DNA of 64,000 nucleotides, from assembly GCA_963752475.1 (NCBI GenBank), contig CAVVYR010000006.1, positions 224,001 to 288,000 of the forward strand, read 5' to 3'. Both the position numbers and the translations under genes were made by a program. Below, piece after piece: positions 9,979-17,357 of this stretch (positions within the stretch are counted from its first letter, which is position 1; each line of letters starts with the position of its first letter). Source of the DNA: an uncultured Chloroflexia bacterium. Lineage in GTDB: Bacteria > Chloroflexota > Limnocylindria > Limnocylindrales > CSP1-4. A model generated the notes under the pieces. That model saw only the letters and a list, made by a program, of their open reading frames with translations. It did not search any database and had not been told where the DNA came from.

Positions 9979-10043
9979 GAGTTCCCTCCTGCGATGGGTT
10001 TGCCCCTCTCTCCGCAGCGGACATCCGGGGTCCACCGCTCCAT
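9975..10043 (-). other. Candidate leaderless 22-aa uORF overlapping the amt start
   Basis: TACGGT -10 hexamer 7 nt before ATG; MERWTPDVRCGERGKPIAGGNS; its TGA overlaps amt ATG. Confidence 0.35.
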
Positions 10044-10181
10044 GTCGAGAACCGTAGGAAGGCTGGGCAGCGAAGTCAGCGACAGCGAGGTCGGGATGTA
10101 GTGGCTCGGGGGTGCATGTTCGGTTGCGGCCCGGTGTCAGCCACGCCGACCTGCGCGGCCCAAGGTTGCGGCCGAGGACGC

Positions 10182-10907
10182 TTAGGCGTCGAGGCGGTAA
10201 CCCACGCCTCGGACGGCCACGGGCACCGGTGCGCCGGCGTTGACCAGCTTCTCGCGCAGTCGGGCGAGGTGTGGCTTGAGCCAGAGCGGATCGGGGTCGG
10301 GCACGTCCGGCCAGCCCGCGGCCAGCAGTTCCTCGTGCGGCACGACCTCACCCAGTCGCTCGACCATCGCTTGCAGCAAGCGGAACTCGGTCACCGTGGT
10401 GGGCAGGGGCGTGCCCTGCCAGCGGATCTCGTGGCGGCGTCGATCGAGCTCATAGCCCGACGGGTCACCCTTGCCGCGGTCGCCGCGGTTGCCGGCCGCC
10501 CGGCGCGAGACGGCCCGGACGCGTGCCAGGAGCTCGTCGGCACGGAAGGGCTTGCGCACGTAGTCGTCGGCGCCAAGGTCGAGCAGCTCCACCGTGGCGC
10601 CCTGATCACGCTCTCCCGAGACCACGATGATGGGCGTGTCGCTCACGTCACGGATGCGGCGGCAGACGCTTGCACCGTCCATGCCCGGCATGGCCAGGTC
10701 GAGCAACACGAGGTCGGGCTCGTCGTCGCCGAAGCGGCGCAGCGCCTCCTCGCCGTCGTAGGCCGCGATGATCCGGTGACCGGCCTGACCCAGCAGCGCG
10801 CCGAGCGCACCGACCATGGCCGGCTCGTCATCGACCACGAGGATCTTGAGCGGCTCCGCCGCCGGTGTCTCGTGTGCGTTCCCCGGCTCGTCTCCGAGCG
10901 TCGTCAT
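10182..10907 (-). CDS. OmpR-family response regulator
   Basis: VVDDE, LLDLAMPG, YVRKPF receiver plus winged helix ending VRGVGYRL; ATG overlaps argR stop. Confidence 0.93.
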   Translation of the reverse strand: MTTLGDEPGNAHETPAAEPLKILVVDDEPAMVGALGALLGQAGHRIIAAYDGEEALRRFGDDEPDLVLLDLAMPGMDGASVCRRIRDVSDTPIIVVSGERDQGATVELLDLGADDYVRKPFRADELLARVRAVSRRAAGNRGDRGKGDPSGYELDRRRHEIRWQGTPLPTTVTEFRLLQAMVERLGEVVPHEELLAAGWPDVPDPDPLWLKPHLARLREKLVNAGAPVPVAVRGVGYRLDA

Positions 10908-11425
10908 CGTGTGGATCCCTTCATGTGCACGGCCGAGCGCAAGGCCTCGAACCGCTCGAGCCACGCCTCCAGTCGCTCCTCGTCCGCGAAGAGGACGAGG
11001 ATGGTGTTGTCGCCTGCGAGCGTGCCTTCCTGTTCGTCGAAGCTCGATTCGTCGATGGCCTGACCGATGGCGTTGGCTACCCCCGCCTCGGTCCCGAGCA
11101 GGAGCGTGAGCCCGGAACGGCCGATGTGGATCGGATAGTCCGCGAGCACGCGGCGCAGCCGCTCGTCGCTATCAGCCGACGGGATGGACGCCAGATCGGC
11201 GGGCCAAGCGTAGATGTGCTGCCCATCGTAAGCCACCTTCACGAGGCCCAGCTCCGTGATGTCCCGGCTCACGGTCGCCTGGGTCACATCGAACCCTCGG
11301 TCAGCGAGCAGGTCGACCAGCTGGTGTTGGCTGGAGACGGACTGCGCGGAGACGATCTCGCGCACGGTGTGCTGGCGCTCGCGCTTGAGGGCACGCGAAG
11401 ACATCGGTCGGGTGGTGGAGTCCAT
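10904..11425 (-). CDS. argR: Arginine repressor
   Basis: VTQATVSRDITELGLVKV and GTLAGDNTILV motifs. Confidence 0.95.
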   Translation of the reverse strand: MDSTTRPMSSRALKRERQHTVREIVSAQSVSSQHQLVDLLADRGFDVTQATVSRDITELGLVKVAYDGQHIYAWPADLASIPSADSDERLRRVLADYPIHIGRSGLTLLLGTEAGVANAIGQAIDESSFDEQEGTLAGDNTILVLFADEERLEAWLERFEALRSAVHMKGSTR

Positions 11426-11433
11426 CGCTGGTC

Positions 11434-11462
11434 AGTATACAGCTGCACCGTATCCATATGCA
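11434..11462. promoter_or_regulatory. ARG-box-like sites overlapping argR promoter
   Basis: AGTAT-ACAG-CTGCA and CGTAT-CCAT-ATGCA resemble TGCAT-N4-ATGCA; minus-strand TATACT -10 lies 8 nt before argR ATG. Confidence 0.6.
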
Positions 11463-11520
11463 GTCCTGAGCGTGCGTCGCATGAGTATCGCCGAGCAACA
11501 TGCATATATGAGTGCAGGGA

Positions 11521-11550
11521 TTGTACTTTCGACTCGGAGCCTGCTACAGT
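11521..11550 (+). promoter_or_regulatory. Sigma70-type promoter for the leader and thrC-like gene
   Basis: TTGTAC-18 nt-TACAGT with TGn extension, 8 nt before leader ATG. Confidence 0.65.
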
Positions 11551-11558
11551 CCGCCGCG

Positions 11559-11621
11559 ATGAAGCCTCACGGTACTCGCATGGCGATGCCCAAGGCCCCG
11601 CCGGGATGGGCGAGGGCCTGA
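11559..11621 (+). CDS. Candidate 20-aa attenuator leader peptide MKPHGTRMAMPKAPPGWARA (Met8, Met10)
   Basis: Directly after promoter; codons 12-17 complementary to terminator 5' arm; same layout as the dap leader. Confidence 0.7.
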   Translation: MKPHGTRMAMPKAPPGWARA

Positions 11622-11665
11622 GGGAGCGCGCCCGAAACCAGCGCTCACCATCAGGACGGATCCCC

Positions 11666-11710
11666 GGGGCCGCGACCAACGAAGCGAAGGTCGCGGCCTT
11701 CGTGATTCCT
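11666..11710 (+). terminator. Attenuator terminator before thrC-like gene
   Basis: GGCCGCGACC-11 nt-GGTCGCGGCC followed by TTCGTGATT (weak U-tract). Confidence 0.6.
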
Positions 11711-11763
11711 GAGCACGCCCCGGCTCCGGTGAGAGCCGGTCATGATCGAGAGGATCCATCCCC

Positions 11764-13116
11764 ATGACGCAGATCGCCATCCGCCCCGCTACCGAGACCA
11801 CCGACACCGCACCGGCCCCCATCGGGGGCAGCACGTCGACCACGACCGACCAGAGCTTCACTCCCGGCTACACCGGTCTGCGCTGTCGCGCCTGCGGTAC
11901 CGAGGCCGCTGACGGCCCGGTCTTCGTGTGCAGCCGATGCTTCGGTCCGCTCGAGCCGCAGTACGACCTCGACGGCATCCGACGGCGCCTCACCCGCGAG
12001 ATCATCGACGCTCGCGATCCCGATATCTGGCGCTGGGCGGAGCTGCTGCCGATCACCGAGCTCCCGACCACCGGCCTCCACGTGGGCCAGTCGCCGCTGA
12101 CCGATGCGCCCCGCCTCGCCGCGCGCATCGGCCTCGACAGGCTCTGGGTCAAGGACGACTCGCGCAACCCCTCGCTCTCGTTCAAGGACCGCCCGGTCTC
12201 GATCGCCGCGGCCCGGGCCAAGGCCTGGGGCTACCACACGCTCGCCTGTGCCTCGACGGGCAACCTCTCGGCCGCCGTGGCCGCGGCGGCTGCTGCTCAC
12301 GGACTGCGCTCGGTCGTCTTCATCCCCGCGGACCTGGAGCCGGCCAAGATCGCGCAGGCCCGCGCGCTCGGCGCCACCGTCGTTCGTGTCGACGGGCCCT
12401 ATGACGACGTCAACCGCCTGTGCCTGGAGCTGACCGACGAGCTCGAAGGATGGGCCGTCCTCAACGTCAACCTGCGCCCGTTCTACGCCGAGGGTTCCAA
12501 GACCATCGCCTTCGAGATCGCTCGGCAACTGGGCTGGCGAGCGCCTGATGCGCTGGTGGCGCCACTGGCCAGCGGGTCCATGTACACCAAGCTCGACCGC
12601 GGCTTCGCCGAGCTGACCGAGACGGGCCTGCTGCACGAGGCAGCGGTGCGCTTCTTCGGTGGCCAGGCCACCGGATGCGGCCCCATCGCCAGCGCCTTCG
12701 AGGCCGGTCAGGACGTCGTGCGCCCGGTCGAGAAGCCGGACACCATCGTGCGCTCGCTGGCCATCGGCTCCCCGGCTGACGGTGGCTACGCCATCAAGCA
12801 GGCTCGTGCGAGCGGCGCGGCCATCCTTGGCGTCGAAGACGAGGCCACCATCGACAGCATCCGCCTGTTGGCCGAGACCGAGGGCATCCTCACCGAGACC
12901 GCCGGCGGCGTGACCCTGGCCGCGCTGCGCCGAGCCATCGACGAGGGCCACATCCAGCGCCAAGAGGAGGCCGTGCTGGTCATCACCGGCAACGGCATCA
13001 AGACGCTCGATGTCCTTGCGAACGACGACGCCAACACGTTGCCCGAGCCCATCGCACCCAGCTTCGACGCCTTCGAGGAGTGGTGGCGGAACACGGCCGA
13101 GGAAGCGGCCGCTTGA
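11764..13116 (+). CDS. thrC: Threonine synthase-family PLP enzyme with N-terminal Zn ribbon; possibly O-phosphohomoserine sulfhydrylase
   Basis: CRAC...CSRC, NPSLSFKDR (PLP Lys), CASTGN, EGSKT, VITGNGIK. Confidence 0.85.
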   Translation: MTQIAIRPATETTDTAPAPIGGSTSTTTDQSFTPGYTGLRCRACGTEAADGPVFVCSRCFGPLEPQYDLDGIRRRLTREIIDARDPDIWRWAELLPITELPTTGLHVGQSPLTDAPRLAARIGLDRLWVKDDSRNPSLSFKDRPVSIAAARAKAWGYHTLACASTGNLSAAVAAAAAAHGLRSVVFIPADLEPAKIAQARALGATVVRVDGPYDDVNRLCLELTDELEGWAVLNVNLRPFYAEGSKTIAFEIARQLGWRAPDALVAPLASGSMYTKLDRGFAELTETGLLHEAAVRFFGGQATGCGPIASAFEAGQDVVRPVEKPDTIVRSLAIGSPADGGYAIKQARASGAAILGVEDEATIDSIRLLAETEGILTETAGGVTLAALRRAIDEGHIQRQEEAVLVITGNGIKTLDVLANDDANTLPEPIAPSFDAFEEWWRNTAEEAAA

Positions 13117-13159
13117 CTCCCGCCGGGGGCGGCGGCGCATCGGCGTCTCCCGAGCTGAC

Positions 13160-13188
13160 TTGACGTCGCCGCCCGACTCCGCGACACT
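13160..13188 (+). promoter_or_regulatory. Sigma70-type promoter of the dap operon leader
   Basis: TTGACG-17 nt-GACACT. Confidence 0.6.
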
Positions 13189-13198
13189 ACGCCGCGGA

Positions 13199-13261
13199 AT
13201 GACTCATCTGTATCTTCTCAAGCCGAAGCCCACGCGGCCCTGCCTGGAGGCAGTGGCCTAG
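13199..13261 (+). CDS. Candidate 20-aa attenuator leader peptide MTHLYLLKPKPTRPCLEAVA (Lys8, Lys10)
   Basis: Follows promoter, precedes lysine operon; codons 12-17 complementary to terminator 5' arm. Confidence 0.75.
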   Translation: MTHLYLLKPKPTRPCLEAVA

Positions 13262-13307
13262 ACGGCTTCGCTCGGGAAACCGACTCGGGGCCGCTAGGCC
13301 GGCTCCG

Positions 13308-13350
13308 AGGGCCGCAGACACCGACCAGGGTGACTGCGGTCTTTTTGTTT
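13308..13350 (+). terminator. Intrinsic attenuator terminator before dapB
   Basis: AGGGCCGCAG-A-CACC / GGTG-A-CTGCGGTCTT stem followed by TTTGTTT. Confidence 0.8.
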
Positions 13351-13417
13351 GGCTCGGAGCCAGCTCAGCCGTCTCGTCGGATCGATCACCCAGCCACGAC
13401 GAGGAACCACACCTACG

Positions 13418-14170
13418 ATGCGAGCACTCATCACCGGCAGCGGCAACATGGGCCGTGCCATCGCCAGCGGCCTCGAGGCGCGCGGTGACGACGTGGCGGC
13501 CACGGCCGGCCGCGAGACCGGCTATCCCGCGGCCGCGGAGATCGGCGCCGTCGATGTCGCCTTCGAGTTCAGCCATGACTCCACCCTGCTCGAGCACATC
13601 GACCTGGGGCTCGCCACGGGCTGTCGTGCCTTCGTCGTGGGCACCACCGGCTGGAGTGCCGCTGACGAGATCGGCCAGGCCTTCGCGGCTCGCCTCAGCG
13701 AGAACGGTGCCCGTGCCGTGGTGGCTCCGACGTATAGCCTCGCCGCGGTCCTCTTCGGCGACATCAGCGAGTACGCTGCCCGCCTCTTCGGCGGCTTCGG
13801 CGACTATGACCCCTATCTCTTCGAGCAGCATCGCGCGGCCAAGGCCGACCGACCCTCTGGCACCGCCCTCGCGGTGGCCAACCGCCTGGTCCCACACCTC
13901 AAGGCGAAGCGCGAGGCGCGCCTGGCCACCGACGCGGGCGCGCCCGATCCCGAGGTGTTGGAGATCGTGGCCCTGCGAGCCGGCAGCCACCCGGGCATGC
14001 ACACCGTCGGGTTCGACGGCCCGGGTGAATCGTTGCAGGTCAAGGTCGAAGCCCGAGACCGCTCGGCCTACGTGGCCGGGGCCATCCTCAGCGCCGACTT
14101 CCTCATCGAGCAGCCAGACCGCACCGGCATCACCGCCTTCACCGACCTGGTCCACGAACGGACCGCCTGA
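13418..14170 (+). CDS. dapB: 4-hydroxy-tetrahydrodipicolinate reductase
   Basis: GSGNMG, VVGTTG, EQHRAAKADRPSGTA. Confidence 0.9.
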   Translation: MRALITGSGNMGRAIASGLEARGDDVAATAGRETGYPAAAEIGAVDVAFEFSHDSTLLEHIDLGLATGCRAFVVGTTGWSAADEIGQAFAARLSENGARAVVAPTYSLAAVLFGDISEYAARLFGGFGDYDPYLFEQHRAAKADRPSGTALAVANRLVPHLKAKREARLATDAGAPDPEVLEIVALRAGSHPGMHTVGFDGPGESLQVKVEARDRSAYVAGAILSADFLIEQPDRTGITAFTDLVHERTA

Positions 14171-14205
14171 GCAAACGAAACGACATCACCGAAAGGGACG
14201 ATCCC

Positions 14206-15126
14206 ATGAGCAACCCCATCTTCAGCGGTGCCATCACCGCCCTCGTCACACCCATGAACGCCGACGGCTCGCTCGACGAGGAGACCCTCGTGGCCATGGT
14301 CGAGCGCCAGATCGACGCCGGCATCAACGGCCTCGTGCCGGTGGGCACGACCGGTGAGTCGCCGACGCTCTCGGCCGAGGAGGACCAGCGCGTCATCGAG
14401 CTGACCATCGAGACCGTGCGGCGCCGTGGCGTGGCCGAGACCACGCCCGTCATCGCCGGCACCGGCTCCAACGTGACCCAGCACGCCATCGAGTACACCG
14501 AAGCCGCCATGCGCCTCGGTGCCGATGCCGCACTGGTGGTCTCGCCCTACTACAACAAGCCCGACCAACGGATGCTCGAGGCCCACTACCGCACCGTGGC
14601 TGACGTGGGCCTGCCGGTGGTGGTCTACAACGTCCCCGGCCGCACTGGTGGCAACGTCGCTCCCGCCACCCTCATGCGCCTCGCCGAGCACGAGAACATC
14701 GTGGCTGTGAAGGAAGCCTCGGGCAACATGGAGCAGATCATGACCATCGTGCGTGATCGGCCCGACGGCTTCGCGGTCCTTTCCGGTGACGACAGCTGGA
14801 CCCTGCCGATCATGGGCGTGGGCGGCGATGGCGTCATCTCGGTGGCCTCCAACGAGGTGCCCCAGGTGATGGTCGAGCTCTGTGCCGCCGCGGCTCGTGG
14901 TGACATGCAGACCGCCTGGGATATCCACTACCGCTATCTGGAACTGATGCGGGTGAACTTCATCACCACCAGCCCGGCGCCGGTCAAGGCGGCCATGGCC
15001 GAGATGGGCCTCATCACCGACGCCCTGCGCATGCCCATGATGACCCTCGACGAGGCCAACCGGGCCCGCGTGCGCGAGGTCCTGGCCGACCTCGATCTGC
15101 TGCCAACGGCCGAGGCTGCTGCATGA
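14206..15126 (+). CDS. dapA: 4-hydroxy-tetrahydrodipicolinate synthase
   Basis: GTTGES, PYYNKP, YNVPGRT, AVKEA. Confidence 0.96.
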   Translation: MSNPIFSGAITALVTPMNADGSLDEETLVAMVERQIDAGINGLVPVGTTGESPTLSAEEDQRVIELTIETVRRRGVAETTPVIAGTGSNVTQHAIEYTEAAMRLGADAALVVSPYYNKPDQRMLEAHYRTVADVGLPVVVYNVPGRTGGNVAPATLMRLAEHENIVAVKEASGNMEQIMTIVRDRPDGFAVLSGDDSWTLPIMGVGGDGVISVASNEVPQVMVELCAAAARGDMQTAWDIHYRYLELMRVNFITTSPAPVKAAMAEMGLITDALRMPMMTLDEANRARVREVLADLDLLPTAEAAA

Positions 15127-16092
15127 TCGCCGACGCCACGTCCGAGCCGAACGATCCGCGGGGGCCGGCAGCCACCGACTCCCACGTGGCTGCCGCCTCG
15201 TCTGCCCTGGCCGCGCGCATCGCCGCCCTTGACGCGGCCTGGGCCGCAAGCCGCCGGCTCCCCGAGTGAGGACCTCATCGCCGAGGTCCGCGTGGTCGTG
15301 GAGGAGCTGGTGGCGGCGCTCGAGGCCGGCGAGGTCCGTGCGGCCACGCCTGACGCCGGCATCGATGGTGGCTGGCGCGTGGACCCCTGGGTCAAGACCG
15401 GCATCCTCATGGGCTTCCGCCTGCCCGGCATGACCGACCTGCGTGATGGACCGATCCTGGCCGCGCGCGACAAGGCCGCCTACGGGCTGCTCGATCTGCT
15501 CGATAGCGACGCCGCGAACGCGGCCTCGGCCGCCGGGGCTCCGTGGCGCGTGGTGCCGGGCGGCTCAGCCGTCCGCAGCGGCGTGCACCTGGAGCCCGGC
15601 GTGACCATCATGCCGCCGTCCTACGCCAACATCGGTGCCTGGGTCGGCCGCGGCACGATGATCGACTCCCACGTGCTCGTGGGCTCGTGCGCCCAGATCG
15701 GGGAGGACGTGCACCTCTCGGCTGCGGTCCAGATCGGCGGTGTGCTCGAACCCGCCGGCGCACGTCCGGTCATCGTCGAGGATGGTGCCTTCGTCGGCGG
15801 TCAGGCGGGCCTCTACGAGGGCGTCACCATCAGTCGTGGTGCCGTCATCGGCGCGGGCACGATCGTCACCGGCCAGAGCCGGGTCGTCGACCTCGTCCAC
15901 GGCCGCGAGCTGCGCGGGACGGCTGAAGCGCCGGTGGTGATCCCGCCCGACGCGGTCGTCGTTCCGGGCACGCGCCCGGCCGGCTCCGATCTCGCACGTG
16001 AGCAGGGCCTGTCGGTCTCGGTGCCGCTCATCGTCAAGTACCGAGATGCCGGCACGAACGCACGGGTGGCTCTGGAGGACGCGCTGCGGTGA
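15123..16092 (+). CDS. dapD: Tetrahydrodipicolinate N-succinyltransferase with apparent +1 frameshift near 15248
   Basis: WVKTGIL, VGSCAQIG, hexapeptide repeats; ATG 15123 coupled to dapA stop reads in a different frame from the gene body. Confidence 0.85.
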
Positions 16093-17357
16093 ACGCCGTT
16101 GCAGCGTCGATCGCGGTCGGGGCGACCGTCGCCGGCCTCGACCCCGCGGCGCTGACCGCGGAGTGGGGGAGCCCGCTCTTCGTCTACGACGCCGAGGTGC
16201 TGCGCTCACGGGCGGCCGCCCTGCAGGCTGCCCTGCCCCAGACGGCGGACGTGGCGTTCGCGTGCAAGGCCAACGGCTCGCCCGTGGTGCTGCGTACGCT
16301 GGCCCAGGCCGGGCTGGGCGTCGACGTCGCCTCCGGCGGTGAGCTGCGTGCAGCGCTGCGGGCCGGCTTCGATCCTGCCCACATCGTCTTCACGGGCCCG
16401 GGCAAGACCGATGCCGAGCTGGCCGAAGCACTCGATGCCGGTGTTGGAGCGCTGACGCTCGAGTCGCTCGAGGAGCTGGACGTCGTGGTCGGCTTCGCTG
16501 GGATCGCGAAGGCGGGCCAGGGCTTGATGCTGCGGCTGGCCACCGAAGGGGAGGCCGAAGGGCTGCCCATCATCAGCGCACCCGGCAACGTCAAGTTCGG
16601 GCTCACCGACGCCGAGGCCGAATCGGCCGTCGCCTCCATGCGCGAGGCTGGAGCGCTGGCGCCCGAGGGCCCCTTCGTGCTGCGTGGCTTCCACGCCTTC
16701 GGCGCCTCCAACGTTCGCGATGCCGCCGTGCTCGTCGAGGCTGCTGCCGACCTCGCCGCTCGCGCGGAGCCCATCGCCGCGCGTCATGGGATCGAGCTCG
16801 AGCTGCTCGACATGGGTGGCGGCCTCGGTATCCCCTATGCCCACGATGAGACGCCGCTCGACATCGCGGGACTCGGTGCGGGGCTGGCCGCGGAGATGCG
16901 CTCGTGGGCCGACCGCCCGGCCTTGCGTGAAGCCCGGTTGCTACTGGAGCCCGGCCGGTGGCTGGCCGGACCTGCCGGTGCCTACCTCTGCCGCGTCACG
17001 CGTACCAAGGAGCGTGGCGGTCGGGTCGTGGCCATCAGCGATGGCGGCATCCACCACCTGCTACGCCCGCGCCTGGTGGGCCAGGACCACCGCGTCGTGC
17101 CCGTCGGTGAGGCAGCCGCTCGTGAGGCGGACGTCGAGGTCGATCTCGTCGGGCCGCTCTGCACCGGTATCGACATCCTGGCCTCGGCCGTGCCCTCGCC
17201 GCGCCCCGCAGCAGGGGACCACTATGCCGTCCTCGATGCCGGCGCCTACGGCTACAGCGAGTCGATGCCGCTCTTCCTGGCGCACCCGACCCCGGCCGAG
17301 ATCGTCATCAGCGACGGCGCCGCCACTGTCTCCCGCGACCGCATCGAACCGGAGTGA
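16089..17357 (+). CDS. lysA: Diaminopimelate decarboxylase family
   Basis: FACKAN, DVASGGE, DMGGGLG, EPGR, GPLC, GAYG; last gene of dap operon. Confidence 0.88.
   Translation: MNAVAASIAVGATVAGLDPAALTAEWGSPLFVYDAEVLRSRAAALQAALPQTADVAFACKANGSPVVLRTLAQAGLGVDVASGGELRAALRAGFDPAHIVFTGPGKTDAELAEALDAGVGALTLESLEELDVVVGFAGIAKAGQGLMLRLATEGEAEGLPIISAPGNVKFGLTDAEAESAVASMREAGALAPEGPFVLRGFHAFGASNVRDAAVLVEAAADLAARAEPIAARHGIELELLDMGGGLGIPYAHDETPLDIAGLGAGLAAEMRSWADRPALREARLLLEPGRWLAGPAGAYLCRVTRTKERGGRVVAISDGGIHHLLRPRLVGQDHRVVPVGEAAAREADVEVDLVGPLCTGIDILASAVPSPRPAAGDHYAVLDAGAYGYSESMPLFLAHPTPAEIVISDGAATVSRDRIEPE

Follow-up and report, generated by a model that had tools for sequence, protein, structure and literature searches.

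What do two 20-codon open reading frames with paired methionine or lysine codons do ahead of two amino acid biosynthesis loci in an uncultured Chloroflexota bacterium of the Limnocylindria type? The organism belongs to the Chloroflexota and not to the actinobacteria. Both frames lie in the 64,000-nt stretch of DNA that was analysed, here called the window, and all coordinates below are positions in it unless another contig is named. Leader-peptide attenuation is a textbook mechanism established for a handful of amino acids, mostly in Proteobacteria and a few Gram-positive bacteria. Lysine and methionine genes are typically portrayed as being under riboswitches, T-boxes or repressors. A first-pass annotation of the window nevertheless proposed that the two frames belong to one attenuator scaffold that was duplicated and re-specified by changing two codons. 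Judging from the conservation, covariation and folding analyses described here, both elements are most probably ribosome-mediated leader-peptide transcription attenuators carried on leaderless or nearly leaderless transcripts.

Both frames are present where the annotation had placed them, on the plus strand like all other features discussed below, and each consists of 20 codons plus a stop codon. Leader ORF 1 runs from ATG at 11559 to TGA at 11621 and would encode the peptide MKPHGTRMAMPKAPPGWARA, in which ATG codons at 11580-11582 and 11586-11588 give Met-Ala-Met with the methionines at codons 8 and 10. Leader ORF 2 (ATG 13199 to TAG 13261) would encode MTHLYLLKPKPTRPCLEAVA, and AAG codons at 13220-13222 and 13226-13228 give Lys-Pro-Lys at the same positions. 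In a gap-free 20-codon alignment, the two peptides carry M/M or K/K at positions 8 and 10 and share P11, P14, A18 and A20, as the annotation had pointed out. It had also described -10 hexamers 8-10 nt before the starts, which agrees with the promoter-like regions found here. Upstream of leader 1 (11521-11550), TTGTAC (11521-11526) is followed by an 18-nt spacer, TACAGT (11545-11550) and, after 8 nt, the ATG; upstream of leader 2 (13160-13188), TTGACG (13160-13165) is followed by 17 nt, GACACT (13183-13188) and, after 10 nt, the ATG. The TTGnnn and TAnnnT elements of leader 1 and the CAnnnT-type hexamer of leader 2 are kept across the respective orthologous alignments, and a purine-rich Shine–Dalgarno (SD) sequence is absent at either leader, again as described. 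Two further details of that description, a CGCCGCG word between hexamer and start and a GAAAC apical loop, were recovered in both window copies but vary among relatives. A consensus promoter and terminator scan called none in the leader region, a result of little weight for GC-rich, non-canonical sites.

RNA folds of leader 1 predict a hairpin, P1 (11593-11619), formed by the 3' half of the ORF up to the stop codon, with 92.9% of cells paired in alignment A1. The 5' arm of P1 (11594-11600), which corresponds to ORF codons 12-15, is complementary to the start of the terminator 5' arm (11665-11671) and represents an alternative partner for it. The predicted antiterminator 3' strand (11650-11671) has two partners, the stop-codon region and 11594-11606, and it shares the first four nucleotides of the terminator stem; its helices show 93.4% and 97.3% pairing in A1. 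The terminator itself (11668-11709) comprises a stem of 11668-11677 with 11689-11698 followed by the tail TTCGTGATTCC, a weak and poor U-tract. The stem is nearly invariant, with 100% of cells paired in A1. On its own strand, leader 1 has no upstream gene.

Leader 2, which starts 83 nt 3' of the stop codon of a thrC-like gene, shows a similar layout. Region 1 (13234-13241) and hairpin P1 (13236-13258) together span 13234-13258 in the RNA folds, and P1 is 93.5% paired in alignment A2. Region 1 again coincides with ORF codons 12-15 and is complementary to the start of the terminator 5' arm (13308-13315), so that the annotated pairing of 3'-half ORF codons with the terminator arm holds in both leaders, at codons 12-15; the stop codons, said to sit in a hairpin, likewise fall within predicted helices in both. 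In folds of truncated transcripts, the antiterminator 3' strand (13284-13315) pairs through CUAGGCC (13294-13300) with the stop-codon region, and through CUCCG with 13245-13249, and region 1 is bound by 13308-13315; the segment 13284-13308 folds as a hairpin of its own when the terminator state is adopted. The antiterminator helices show 99.0% and 96.5% pairing in A2, and seven pairs have changed on both sides, compared with 2.9 in shuffles (1/500). The predicted intrinsic terminator (13308-13351) has a stem at about 13308-13343, followed by TCTTTTTGTTT, and 97.6% of its cells are paired, with compensatory changes.

The genes behind the leaders fit the codons within them. Leader 1 precedes a thrC-family PLP enzyme (11764-13116) with an N-terminal Cys-rich extension and a match to PALP and TIGR00260 at 247 bits. 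A second thrC with a better score lies elsewhere in the genome (C6:571192-572157), marking the leader-1 gene as an extra paralog. At 22 of the 40 loci tested, homologs of this gene carry a SAM riboswitch directly upstream (SAM-I at 20/40, SAM-II at 2/40); none was detected upstream of the gene in the window or in its closest relatives. Since the homologs carry SAM riboswitches in the same position, the gene looks MetM-like, and a methionine-pathway sensor is to be expected where leader 1 lies. The product is a probable MetM-like homocysteine synthase. In the literature, MetM is described as a MetO-thiocarboxylate-dependent homocysteine synthase that uses O-phosphohomoserine (PMC13759103, PMC12172450), and a SAM riboswitch is placed upstream of metM in Streptomyces (PMC12172450). 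Leader 2 precedes a lysine operon (13419-17357) composed of a divergent dapB (13419-14170), dapA (14206-15126), dapD (15229-16092) and lysA (16089-17357). No Pfam or NCBIfam model matched the dapB-like protein of the window; a homolog from the taxonomic family matched DapB_C at 79.7 bits. The metA-metY locus of the genome has neither an Rfam riboswitch nor a match to the covariance model introduced below.

The two leaders can be aligned end to end with 72 of 140 positions identical (51%), and the global alignment (z = 7.6) was not equalled in score by any of 500 dinucleotide shuffles. By this measure they are homologous, old paralogs. The duplicated scaffold proposed in the annotation thus stands as far as homology is concerned; at 51% identity, however, the copies are more than two codon changes apart. 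Both regions are well conserved within the genus, leader 1 in 21 and leader 2 in 23 of the 24 other genomes. The ORFs and codons 8 and 10 are kept at the orthologous loci, in line with what the annotation would predict. The leader 1 ORF is kept in all 22 genus loci, with M-x-M in 21 and a length of 20 amino acids in 20; one locus reads I-S-M and one has a premature stop. For leader 2, 23 of 24 loci retain the ORF together with K-x-K, the remaining one being broken by a 1-nt insertion. All 23 intact ORFs carry K-x-K, 19 of them are 20 amino acids long, and the middle codon varies between P, R, K and S. Leader codons 2-7 vary freely among these loci, and the identity of the sensor codons is under strict purifying selection while adjacent codons change. 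A different constraint acts further downstream: 3' of the sensor codons, the two window leaders use different reading frames for the peptide over an RNA that is conserved, and compensatory changes in P1 alter the encoded residues, which points to constraint on the RNA.

Outside the genus, a covariance model built from both window leaders (R1) found the many additional copies that a duplicated scaffold would lead one to look for, matching 95 of the 151 genomes of the taxonomic family and 37 of its 49 genera, a tally that takes in one unpublished genome, G120. Within the host genome R1 recovered only the two window copies (150 of 8541 first-look candidates scored), and a heuristic scan for 16-30-codon leaders with hairpin and terminator, combined with word searches, yielded no third member. 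The candidates inspected from the heuristic scan were rejected, as they lie in or against coding sequence. The length of 20 codons, the sensor positions 8 and 10, the CGCCGCG word and the GAAAC loop are genus-level details only. Family-wide, the peptides comprise 18-26 codons and the sensor begins at position 7-11; 86 of 101 leaders have a [TC]AnnnT hexamer whose end lies 6-11 nt upstream of the start codon, compared with 10.8% in shuffles. The covarying stems anticipated in the annotation are seen in the terminator, which has seven pairs with two-sided changes family-wide against 2.8 in shuffles (0/500) and is followed by a T-rich tail. Across 100 distinct sequences, helix H1, formed by codons 12-15 with the terminator arm, has 96.6% of its cells paired, and at one pair 17 of these sequences have switched from C-G to U-A. 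When truncated leaders of 34 Lys-class and 43 Met-class members were folded with RNAalifold, H1 was predicted in both classes and, for the Met class, the whole antiterminator with covarying pairs.

The sensor codons follow the pathway of the downstream gene throughout the 103 R1 matches examined, a set outside which some 45 further listed places lie. The annotation had expected this agreement specifically for codons 8 and 10; the sensor codons do fit the pathway, but their position at 8 and 10 is confined to the genus. All 43 examined leaders before dapB are Lys-rich, with K-x-K, KKK or KxKxK, the latter two forms being common; an automatic rule scored 39 of them as K-x-K, and the other four are Lys-rich. 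Similarly, M-x-M is found in all 43 examined leaders before metY, 39 of which were scored by the automatic rule, the other four having M-x-M in another listed frame or being cut by a contig end. M-x-M also occurs before OsmC (4) and a MetM-like gene (1), and leaders with Cys codons, for which both TGT and TGC are used, precede cysE (2), rhodanese (2), sulfite reductase (1) and a solute-binding protein (1). Among the 103 matches there is no K-x-K before metY and no M-x-M before dapB. Further, the sensor is reinforced in relatives by versions such as KKK, KxKxK and a run of five Met codons. In a tree, the Lys class forms a single group; because of this, and because related genomes are not independent, the codon-pathway match stems from few independent events. 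In the sister family (f3), where dap loci were sought for a comparison with lysine riboswitches, the divergent DapB was found in 0 of 31 genomes and dapA exceeded its cut-off in 1 of 21.

These observations can be combined into a working model, whose transcription start, ORF translation, kinetic folding order and starvation response are inferred. The transcript would begin at or just before the ATG of the short ORF, which a ribosome would then translate. The antiterminator, a long helix, would take its 5' strand from the final nine sense codons, the stop codon and some 10 nt downstream of it; the innermost part of that strand, codons 12-15, would pair with the first nucleotides of the terminator 5' arm. 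When charged tRNA is plentiful, the ribosome should reach the stop codon and cover this 5' strand during synthesis of the 3' strand; the antiterminator would be blocked, the terminator would form and transcription would end. If Met-tRNA (leader 1) or Lys-tRNA (leader 2) runs short, stalling would instead hold the ribosome at codons 8 and 10, immediately 5' of this strand, so that the antiterminator could form before the 3' arm of the terminator is made, permitting readthrough into the MetM-like gene or into dapB-dapA-dapD-lysA.

Folding of truncated transcripts is consistent with this order of events. When transcripts were cut before the terminator 3' arm and the 5' end was masked, mimicking a ribosome at codon 8 in the case of leader 1, the antiterminator was the minimum-energy fold in 7/7 orthologs of leader 1; truncated leader 2 transcripts, likewise masked to represent a stalled ribosome, gave the same outcome in 11/11 orthologs, and region 1 pairs with the terminator arm in both sets. 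Full-length leaders favour the terminator over the antiterminator state by 4-14 kcal/mol at every ribosome position modelled. As the terminator is always favoured at equilibrium, the switch must be kinetic and lies beyond demonstration by folding. Equilibrium folding with masked footprints was discarded as a readout, since the terminator probability failed to separate the states, and the truncated-transcript folds were used in its place. In the folding model, a wider ribosome footprint at codon 10 covers part of region 1, and H1 is lost. Further, GC-rich and partly palindromic words (GGCC, CCGG) permit several alternative pairings, and H1, P1 and the leader 1 terminator carry little covariation because they are almost invariant.

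RNA traces from the locus come from assembled contigs of three RNA libraries, in which starts, ends and levels are not readable and uncovered parts are uninformative. Two 151-nt contigs of library X19 are identical to 11654-11804 and 11786-11936, spanning the leader 1 terminator and the 5' part of the gene, and one 151-nt contig of library X20 lies on 13211-13361. At depths of 2-4 and with possible DNA carry-over, these contigs are at most a hint that the leader region is transcribed.

Four other explanations were weighed against attenuation. One would treat 13308-13351 as a plain terminator of the thrC-like gene, 83 nt downstream of whose stop codon the element begins, and the ORF at 13199 as a chance frame in the 3' UTR. 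Little credence is left for it, given that the element stands before dapB at 43 examined loci in many genera, has promoter-like hexamers of its own and is homologous to leader 1, which has no same-strand gene before it. A ligand- or protein-binding switch, either a riboswitch of a new type or a repressor site, with an incidental short ORF, would account for the nucleotide-level conservation of the 3' two-thirds of the leaders, where helices constrain more than the peptide does, and would be in keeping with the SAM riboswitches that control the same gene in other lineages. However, almost the same core precedes Lys, Met and Cys genes and it is the codon triplet that tracks the pathway, with Cys sensors using TGT as well as TGC. 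In 86 of 101 leaders an in-frame start codon follows a -10-like hexamer at a distance of 6-11 nt, and the frame stays open through the freely varying N-terminal stretch, both of which speak for a translated ORF. Rfam gave no family match at E <= 1 in window positions 10000-15000, with Trp_leader, His_leader, SAM, Lysine and T-box included. A binding switch is thus considered very unlikely.

The remaining two explanations accept that the ORF is translated. In one, amino-acid-specific transcription termination would play no part; control would come from a nascent peptide that stalls the ribosome or would act on translation, by masking of a ribosome-binding site as in the polycysteine short ORFs of mycobacteria. 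APPG in leader 1 and WRPxR-type motifs in many relatives are suggestive of arrest peptides, and in the minimum-energy fold GGATCC before the leader 1 terminator pairs with a GGATCC that overlaps the downstream SD. Further, the closest experimentally studied leaderless attenuators of this kind act on translation (10.1101/834739). The arrest-peptide idea was rejected since the RNA is kept and the frame is not, the post-sensor peptides of the two window leaders being read in different frames and compensatory changes altering peptide residues; against translational masking stands the covarying hairpin with a T-rich tail between ORF and gene throughout the family. Altogether, control by a nascent peptide or by masking is improbable. 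In the other, the elements would report general translation capacity or transcription-translation coupling and not specifically Met-tRNA or Lys-tRNA. The window copies indeed have only two sensor codons, fewer than classical his or leu leaders, and in the model anything that slows the ribosome ahead of codon 11 would have the same effect. Yet a general reporter would hardly call for strict purifying selection on two codons amid variable neighbours, for sensor codons that fit the pathway in the 103 examined matches or for the KKK, KxKxK and five-Met versions of relatives, and we regard it as highly doubtful.

With attenuation as the preferred reading, it appears, from the comparison of leaders and genes, that a single homologous scaffold acquired its Lys, Met and Cys specificities through changes of a codon triplet, in a poorly studied, uncultured phylum. 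It is likely that one ancestral leaderless scaffold was copied and recoded within a Chloroflexota family for at least three amino acids, namely Lys (dapB operons), Met (metY, MetM-like and OsmC-metY) and Cys (cysE, sulfite reductase and rhodanese), that it replaces at metM the SAM riboswitches of other phyla and that it represents a ribosome-read, naturally programmable counterpart of a T-box specifier swap. These elements would then be among the first Lys and Met leader-peptide attenuators; a full-text literature search found no leader-peptide attenuation in Chloroflexi and, among the matches listed, no Lys- or Met-codon attenuators of these genes. If true, the family offers a natural example of how the amino acid specificity of a sensor evolves through recoding, and a small building block, about 150 nt in size, with a specificity that could perhaps be chosen freely. 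Regulons could be annotated from leader codons in metagenomes, and pathway roles could be inferred in the same way, for example for the MetM-like thrC paralog or for beta-carbonic-anhydrase-like genes.

The proposed attenuators can be placed among several known systems. Leader 1 occupies the position of the SAM riboswitch before metM and presumably serves the same purpose, repression when methionine is sufficient; the riboswitch binds SAM directly, whereas the window and its closest relatives carry a Met-codon leader instead. The mycobacterial polycysteine leaderless short ORFs sense an amino acid via ribosome pausing and form a multi-locus 'ribulon', according to the preprint (Canestrari et al., bioRxiv 10.1101/834739). 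The window elements would resemble them in being leaderless short ORFs with one logic at several loci, and differ in having an intrinsic terminator with a T-tract, Met and Lys sensors (Cys in relatives), members that are homologous in sequence and a host from the Chloroflexota. Like T-box leaders, the scaffold would be re-aimed by a codon-sized word and read out as terminator versus antiterminator; unlike them, it matches no T-box model, and the codon would be read by a ribosome translating an ORF and not by direct tRNA binding.

In the enterobacterial trp, his, leu, thr, ilv and pheA attenuators, the position of the ribosome decides the fold; the terminator is the thermodynamically preferred structure, over which the antiterminator prevails kinetically. 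The window elements share with these a short ORF containing codons of its own pathway and a mutually exclusive antiterminator and terminator. Unlike the enterobacterial leaders, they lack an SD, place the start codon next to a -10-like hexamer, belong to no Rfam leader family and would sense Lys or Met (Cys in relatives) through only two or three codons spaced X-n-X. Further, it is the 3' half of the ORF itself, together with the stop codon, that would provide the 5' strand of the antiterminator here, and one homologous scaffold would serve several amino acids.

Two short open reading frames (ORFs) of 20 codons each were confirmed exactly as the first-pass annotation had described them, both on the forward strand: leader ORF 1 from the ATG at 11559 to the TGA at 11621 (MKPHGTRMAMPKAPPGWARA) and leader ORF 2 from the ATG at 13199 to the TAG at 13261 (MTHLYLLKPKPTRPCLEAVA). 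Each repeats its putative sensor codon at positions 8 and 10, Met-x-Met in leader 1 and Lys-x-Lys in leader 2. The -10-like hexamers TACAGT (11545-11550) and GACACT (13183-13188) precede the ORFs by 8 and 10 nt, respectively, a TTGnnn word lies 17–18 nt upstream of each hexamer, and a Shine–Dalgarno sequence is absent ahead of both ORFs, as had been noted. The gene order is argR, leader 1, a thrC-family PLP enzyme gene, leader 2, a divergent dapB, dapA, dapD and lysA. The arginine repressor gene argR (10904-11425, reverse strand) diverges from leader 1, with 133 nt between its start and the leader 1 ATG. The thrC-family gene (11764-13116, forward strand) follows leader 1, and the lysine operon (forward strand), which begins with dapB at 13419-14170 and ends at 17357, follows leader 2. 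The first gene of this operon has no Pfam or NCBIfam match at E ≤ 0.001; a 257-aa homologue from the same taxonomic family matches DapB_C at 79.7 bits, and the gene is a highly diverged dapB, one that automated annotation may overlook. No Rfam family matched positions 10000-15000 at E ≤ 1. The host belongs to the Chloroflexota (Limnocylindria type) and is not the actinobacterium that the G+C content would lead one to expect.

Aligned with their orthologues, the two leaders are collinear over their whole length, and the joint alignment puts their starts, sensor codons, first hairpin, stop region, terminator arms and T-tails in register. None of 500 dinucleotide shuffles reached their global alignment score, which is 7.6 SD higher than the shuffles, and the leaders are homologous. 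The proposal that one scaffold was duplicated and re-specified by two codon changes is supported as to homology and recoding, but the leaders are old paralogues, identical at 72 of 140 aligned positions. Of 24 further genomes from the genus, 23 have the leader 2 region and 21 the leader 1 region; neither region occurs among 16 genomes of a small-genome sister family. The leader 1 ORF is kept at all 22 loci compared (20 residues in 20, one premature stop) with M-x-M in 21, the exception being I-S-M. The leader 2 ORF is kept at 23 of 24 loci, one frame being broken by a 1-nt insertion; all 23 intact ORFs carry K-x-K, with P, R, K or S as the middle codon, and 19 have 20 residues. The conservation of ORFs and sensor codons on which the earlier reading turned is thus borne out. 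Codons 2-7 vary freely, the nucleotides 3′ of the sensor codons are strongly conserved, and paired substitutions in the first hairpin change the encoded residues. Selection acts on the open frame, the two codons and the RNA structure, not on the peptide. Three genus loci (L020, L042, L043) hold damaged or deviant leaders: the leader 2 with the insertion comes from a MAG that is 60% complete, and the leader 1 copies have a premature TAG after codon 11 in one case and I-S-M in the other. Errors in assembly could explain them, as could a natural loss of control.

Each leader can be folded into two states. The terminator state comprises a first hairpin, P1, which the 3′ half of the ORF forms as far as the stop codon, followed by one or two more hairpins and the terminator. 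In the antiterminator state, ORF codons 12-15 (region 1; the span first noted was 12-17) pair with the first 7-8 nt of the terminator 5′ side to form helix H1, namely 11594-11600 with 11665-11671 in leader 1 and 13234-13241 with 13308-13315 in leader 2. Further, the P1 loop side and stop-codon region pair with the sequence directly upstream of the terminator (GGCCUAG with CUAGGCC in leader 2, UGA and UCAGG being the leader 1 equivalent), and the pairings add up to one long helix that excludes the terminator. When transcripts were cut before the terminator 3′ arm and their 5′ end masked as if a ribosome had stalled at the first sensor codon, the antiterminator was the minimum-energy fold in 7/7 leader 1 and 11/11 leader 2 orthologues. 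The anticipated covariation was found in part: family-wide, the terminator has 7 pairs with two-sided changes versus 2.8 in shuffles (0/500), and the key antiterminator helix, 96.6% paired, has one H1 pair changing from C-G to U-A in 17 sequences, but in the genus alignments the helices of both states are 93–100% paired with little variation. RNAalifold, applied to 34 Lys-class and 43 Met-class truncated leaders, predicted the key helix in both classes and, in the Met class, the entire antiterminator with covarying pairs. In full-length leaders the terminator state is 4–14 kcal/mol more stable at every modelled ribosome position, and on this model the antiterminator could win only by forming first. 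In classical attenuators, the antiterminator likewise wins only by earlier formation.

We propose that a ribosome at the stop codon would cover the antiterminator 5′ strand (approximately leader nt 46-75) during synthesis of the 3′ strand, so that the terminator would form. If the ribosome instead stalled at its Met or Lys codons, it would end just upstream of region 1 and leave the 5′ strand free, the antiterminator would form, and the operon would be transcribed. The model agrees with the unvarying distance from the sensor codons to region 1. Among the assembled contigs of three RNA libraries, one metatranscriptome yielded two 151-nt contigs identical to 11654-11804 and 11786-11936, which join the leader 1 terminator to the gene behind it, and another library yielded one contig over 13211-13361. 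These contigs have a depth of 2-4, may derive from DNA carry-over and leave transcript ends unreadable, and the support for transcription is thin.

A covariance model built from both leaders (R1), the scan that the first-pass annotation had proposed, matched only leaders 1 and 2 in the host genome (150 of 8541 first-look candidates scored). Within the family it matched 95 of 151 genomes, representing 37 of 49 genera, and a single genome had at most four matches; this tally includes an unpublished genome, G120, which is absent from the other analyses. A class-wide draw gave matches in 31/44 genomes of the host family and 3/50 of one other family, and none in three further families (49, 6 and 1 genomes). 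We examined 103 leaders from the approximately 150 listed R1 places, naming the downstream genes by Pfam and then by tblastn against those references, which left three unmatched, including a sulfite reductase leader later named by Pfam. All 43 dapB leaders are Lys-rich, 39 being K-x-K by an automatic rule and the other four KRK, KPK, SKK and TKK; KKK and KxKxK are frequent. The 43 leaders of metY-type PLP enzymes comprise 39 with M-x-M by the rule, three in which a different listed frame shows it and one truncated at a contig end. M-x-M also precedes four OsmC-like genes, two of which have metY 3′ of them by tblastn, and one MetM-like gene. Cys codons precede cysE (two C-x-C), rhodanese (two, Cys-rich) and sulfite reductase (CVCMC); a solute-binding protein gene has MCRC, four beta-carbonic-anhydrase-like genes have mixed Met/Cys, and the remaining two leaders have no reference match or no ORF. 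The expected match of codons to downstream pathway was thus found in further copies, and the comparison supports the reading of a shared attenuator scaffold.

Lys sensors are AAG 101 times and AAA three times, and for Cys both TGT and TGC occur. Of 45 leaders with M-x-M, 36 have Cys as the middle residue, its codon mostly TGT, which is unexpected for such a GC-rich genome; metY may also respond to Cys, or the residue may have a structural role. In 86 of 101 leaders, versus 10.8% in shuffles, an upstream [TC]AnnnT hexamer ends 6-11 nt from the start, a spacing that fits leaderless or nearly leaderless transcripts. The 20-codon length and sensor positions 8 and 10 hold for both window leaders but are genus-level details: family-wide, peptides have 18-26 codons and the first sensor codon falls at positions 7-11, at a constant distance from the hairpin. 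The GAAAC loop and CGCCGCG, first noted in both leaders, likewise belong to the genus level and are variable among relatives.

Several side observations were made. The beta-carbonic-anhydrase-family genes behind Cys/Met-type leaders (L239, L244, L174, L205; one inside a metY cluster) may encode proteins whose substrate is a sulfur compound rather than CO2. The genome G197, from a different family of the class, carries one Met-type and one Lys-type leader back to back, on opposite strands and some 330 nt from each other (L252, 2594-3253). Each is preceded by TTGACA, 7 nt and TACGGT, a spacer of unusual shortness, and the -10 element looks TGn-extended; L253-L255 share the arrangement. In the host genome, metY directly follows a putative metA-like gene, so named from a short peptide motif (C8:194882-199156, L267), and upstream of the pair neither an R1-family leader nor an Rfam riboswitch was detected. 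In the sister family f3, divergent DapB was found in 0/31 genomes and dapA exceeded the cut-off in only 1/21; this family may make lysine by another route or rely on uptake.

The leader tree, computed from the model alignment minus the sensor columns, is weakly resolved because it has only 144 columns. A branch with support 89 sets all 41 Lys leaders apart from the rest, the six MetM-type leaders group as a clade (98), and leaders of Cys-pathway genes are dispersed, one lying within the metY class (96). The tree implies a minimum of five class changes for the four clearly labelled classes and eight for all five groups. The classes are old, and few independent events therefore stand behind the codon–pathway match; the scaffold was nevertheless recoded more than once.

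The gene behind leader 1 is a paralogue, since another thrC in the genome outscores it on the thrC model (321.6 vs 248.3 bits). At 40 homologous loci from Actinomycetota, Thermoleophilia, Gemmatimonadota and more distant Chloroflexota, SAM-I riboswitches lie directly upstream in 20 and SAM-II in 2, and its closest relatives (at least 64% identity) have no SAM riboswitch upstream. The Streptomyces thrC-like homocysteine synthase MetM is listed in PMC13759103, and PMC12172450 places a SAM riboswitch upstream of it. Given these riboswitches and the MetM precedent, the window gene is very probably a methionine-pathway enzyme, and the Met-codon leader occupies the position of the SAM sensor in other lineages. 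The riboswitches at 22/40 loci (loci listed for SAM-I/SAM-II: L063-L066, L069, L070-L087, L099, L121, L127) would mark the whole orthologous group, usually annotated as threonine synthase, as methionine-pathway enzymes.

Searches of full texts, supplements aside, returned nothing combining Chloroflexi, leader peptides and transcription attenuation, and the full-text search listings, on the same scope, described no Lys- or Met-codon attenuators of these genes. As far as found, novelty lies in which amino acids are sensed, in the sharing of one recodable scaffold, in the leader's apparent substitution for a SAM riboswitch and in the phylum, Chloroflexota. Mechanistically the type is already known: the trp and his attenuators follow the same logic, and none of the known leader families in Rfam matches the window leaders. 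The nearest experimental system is the mycobacterial polycysteine leaderless small ORFs, which, according to 10.1101/834739, regulate at the level of translation and have been described for Cys. The T-box specifier is likewise a case of one scaffold recoded, but in the window leaders the codon would be read inside an ORF.
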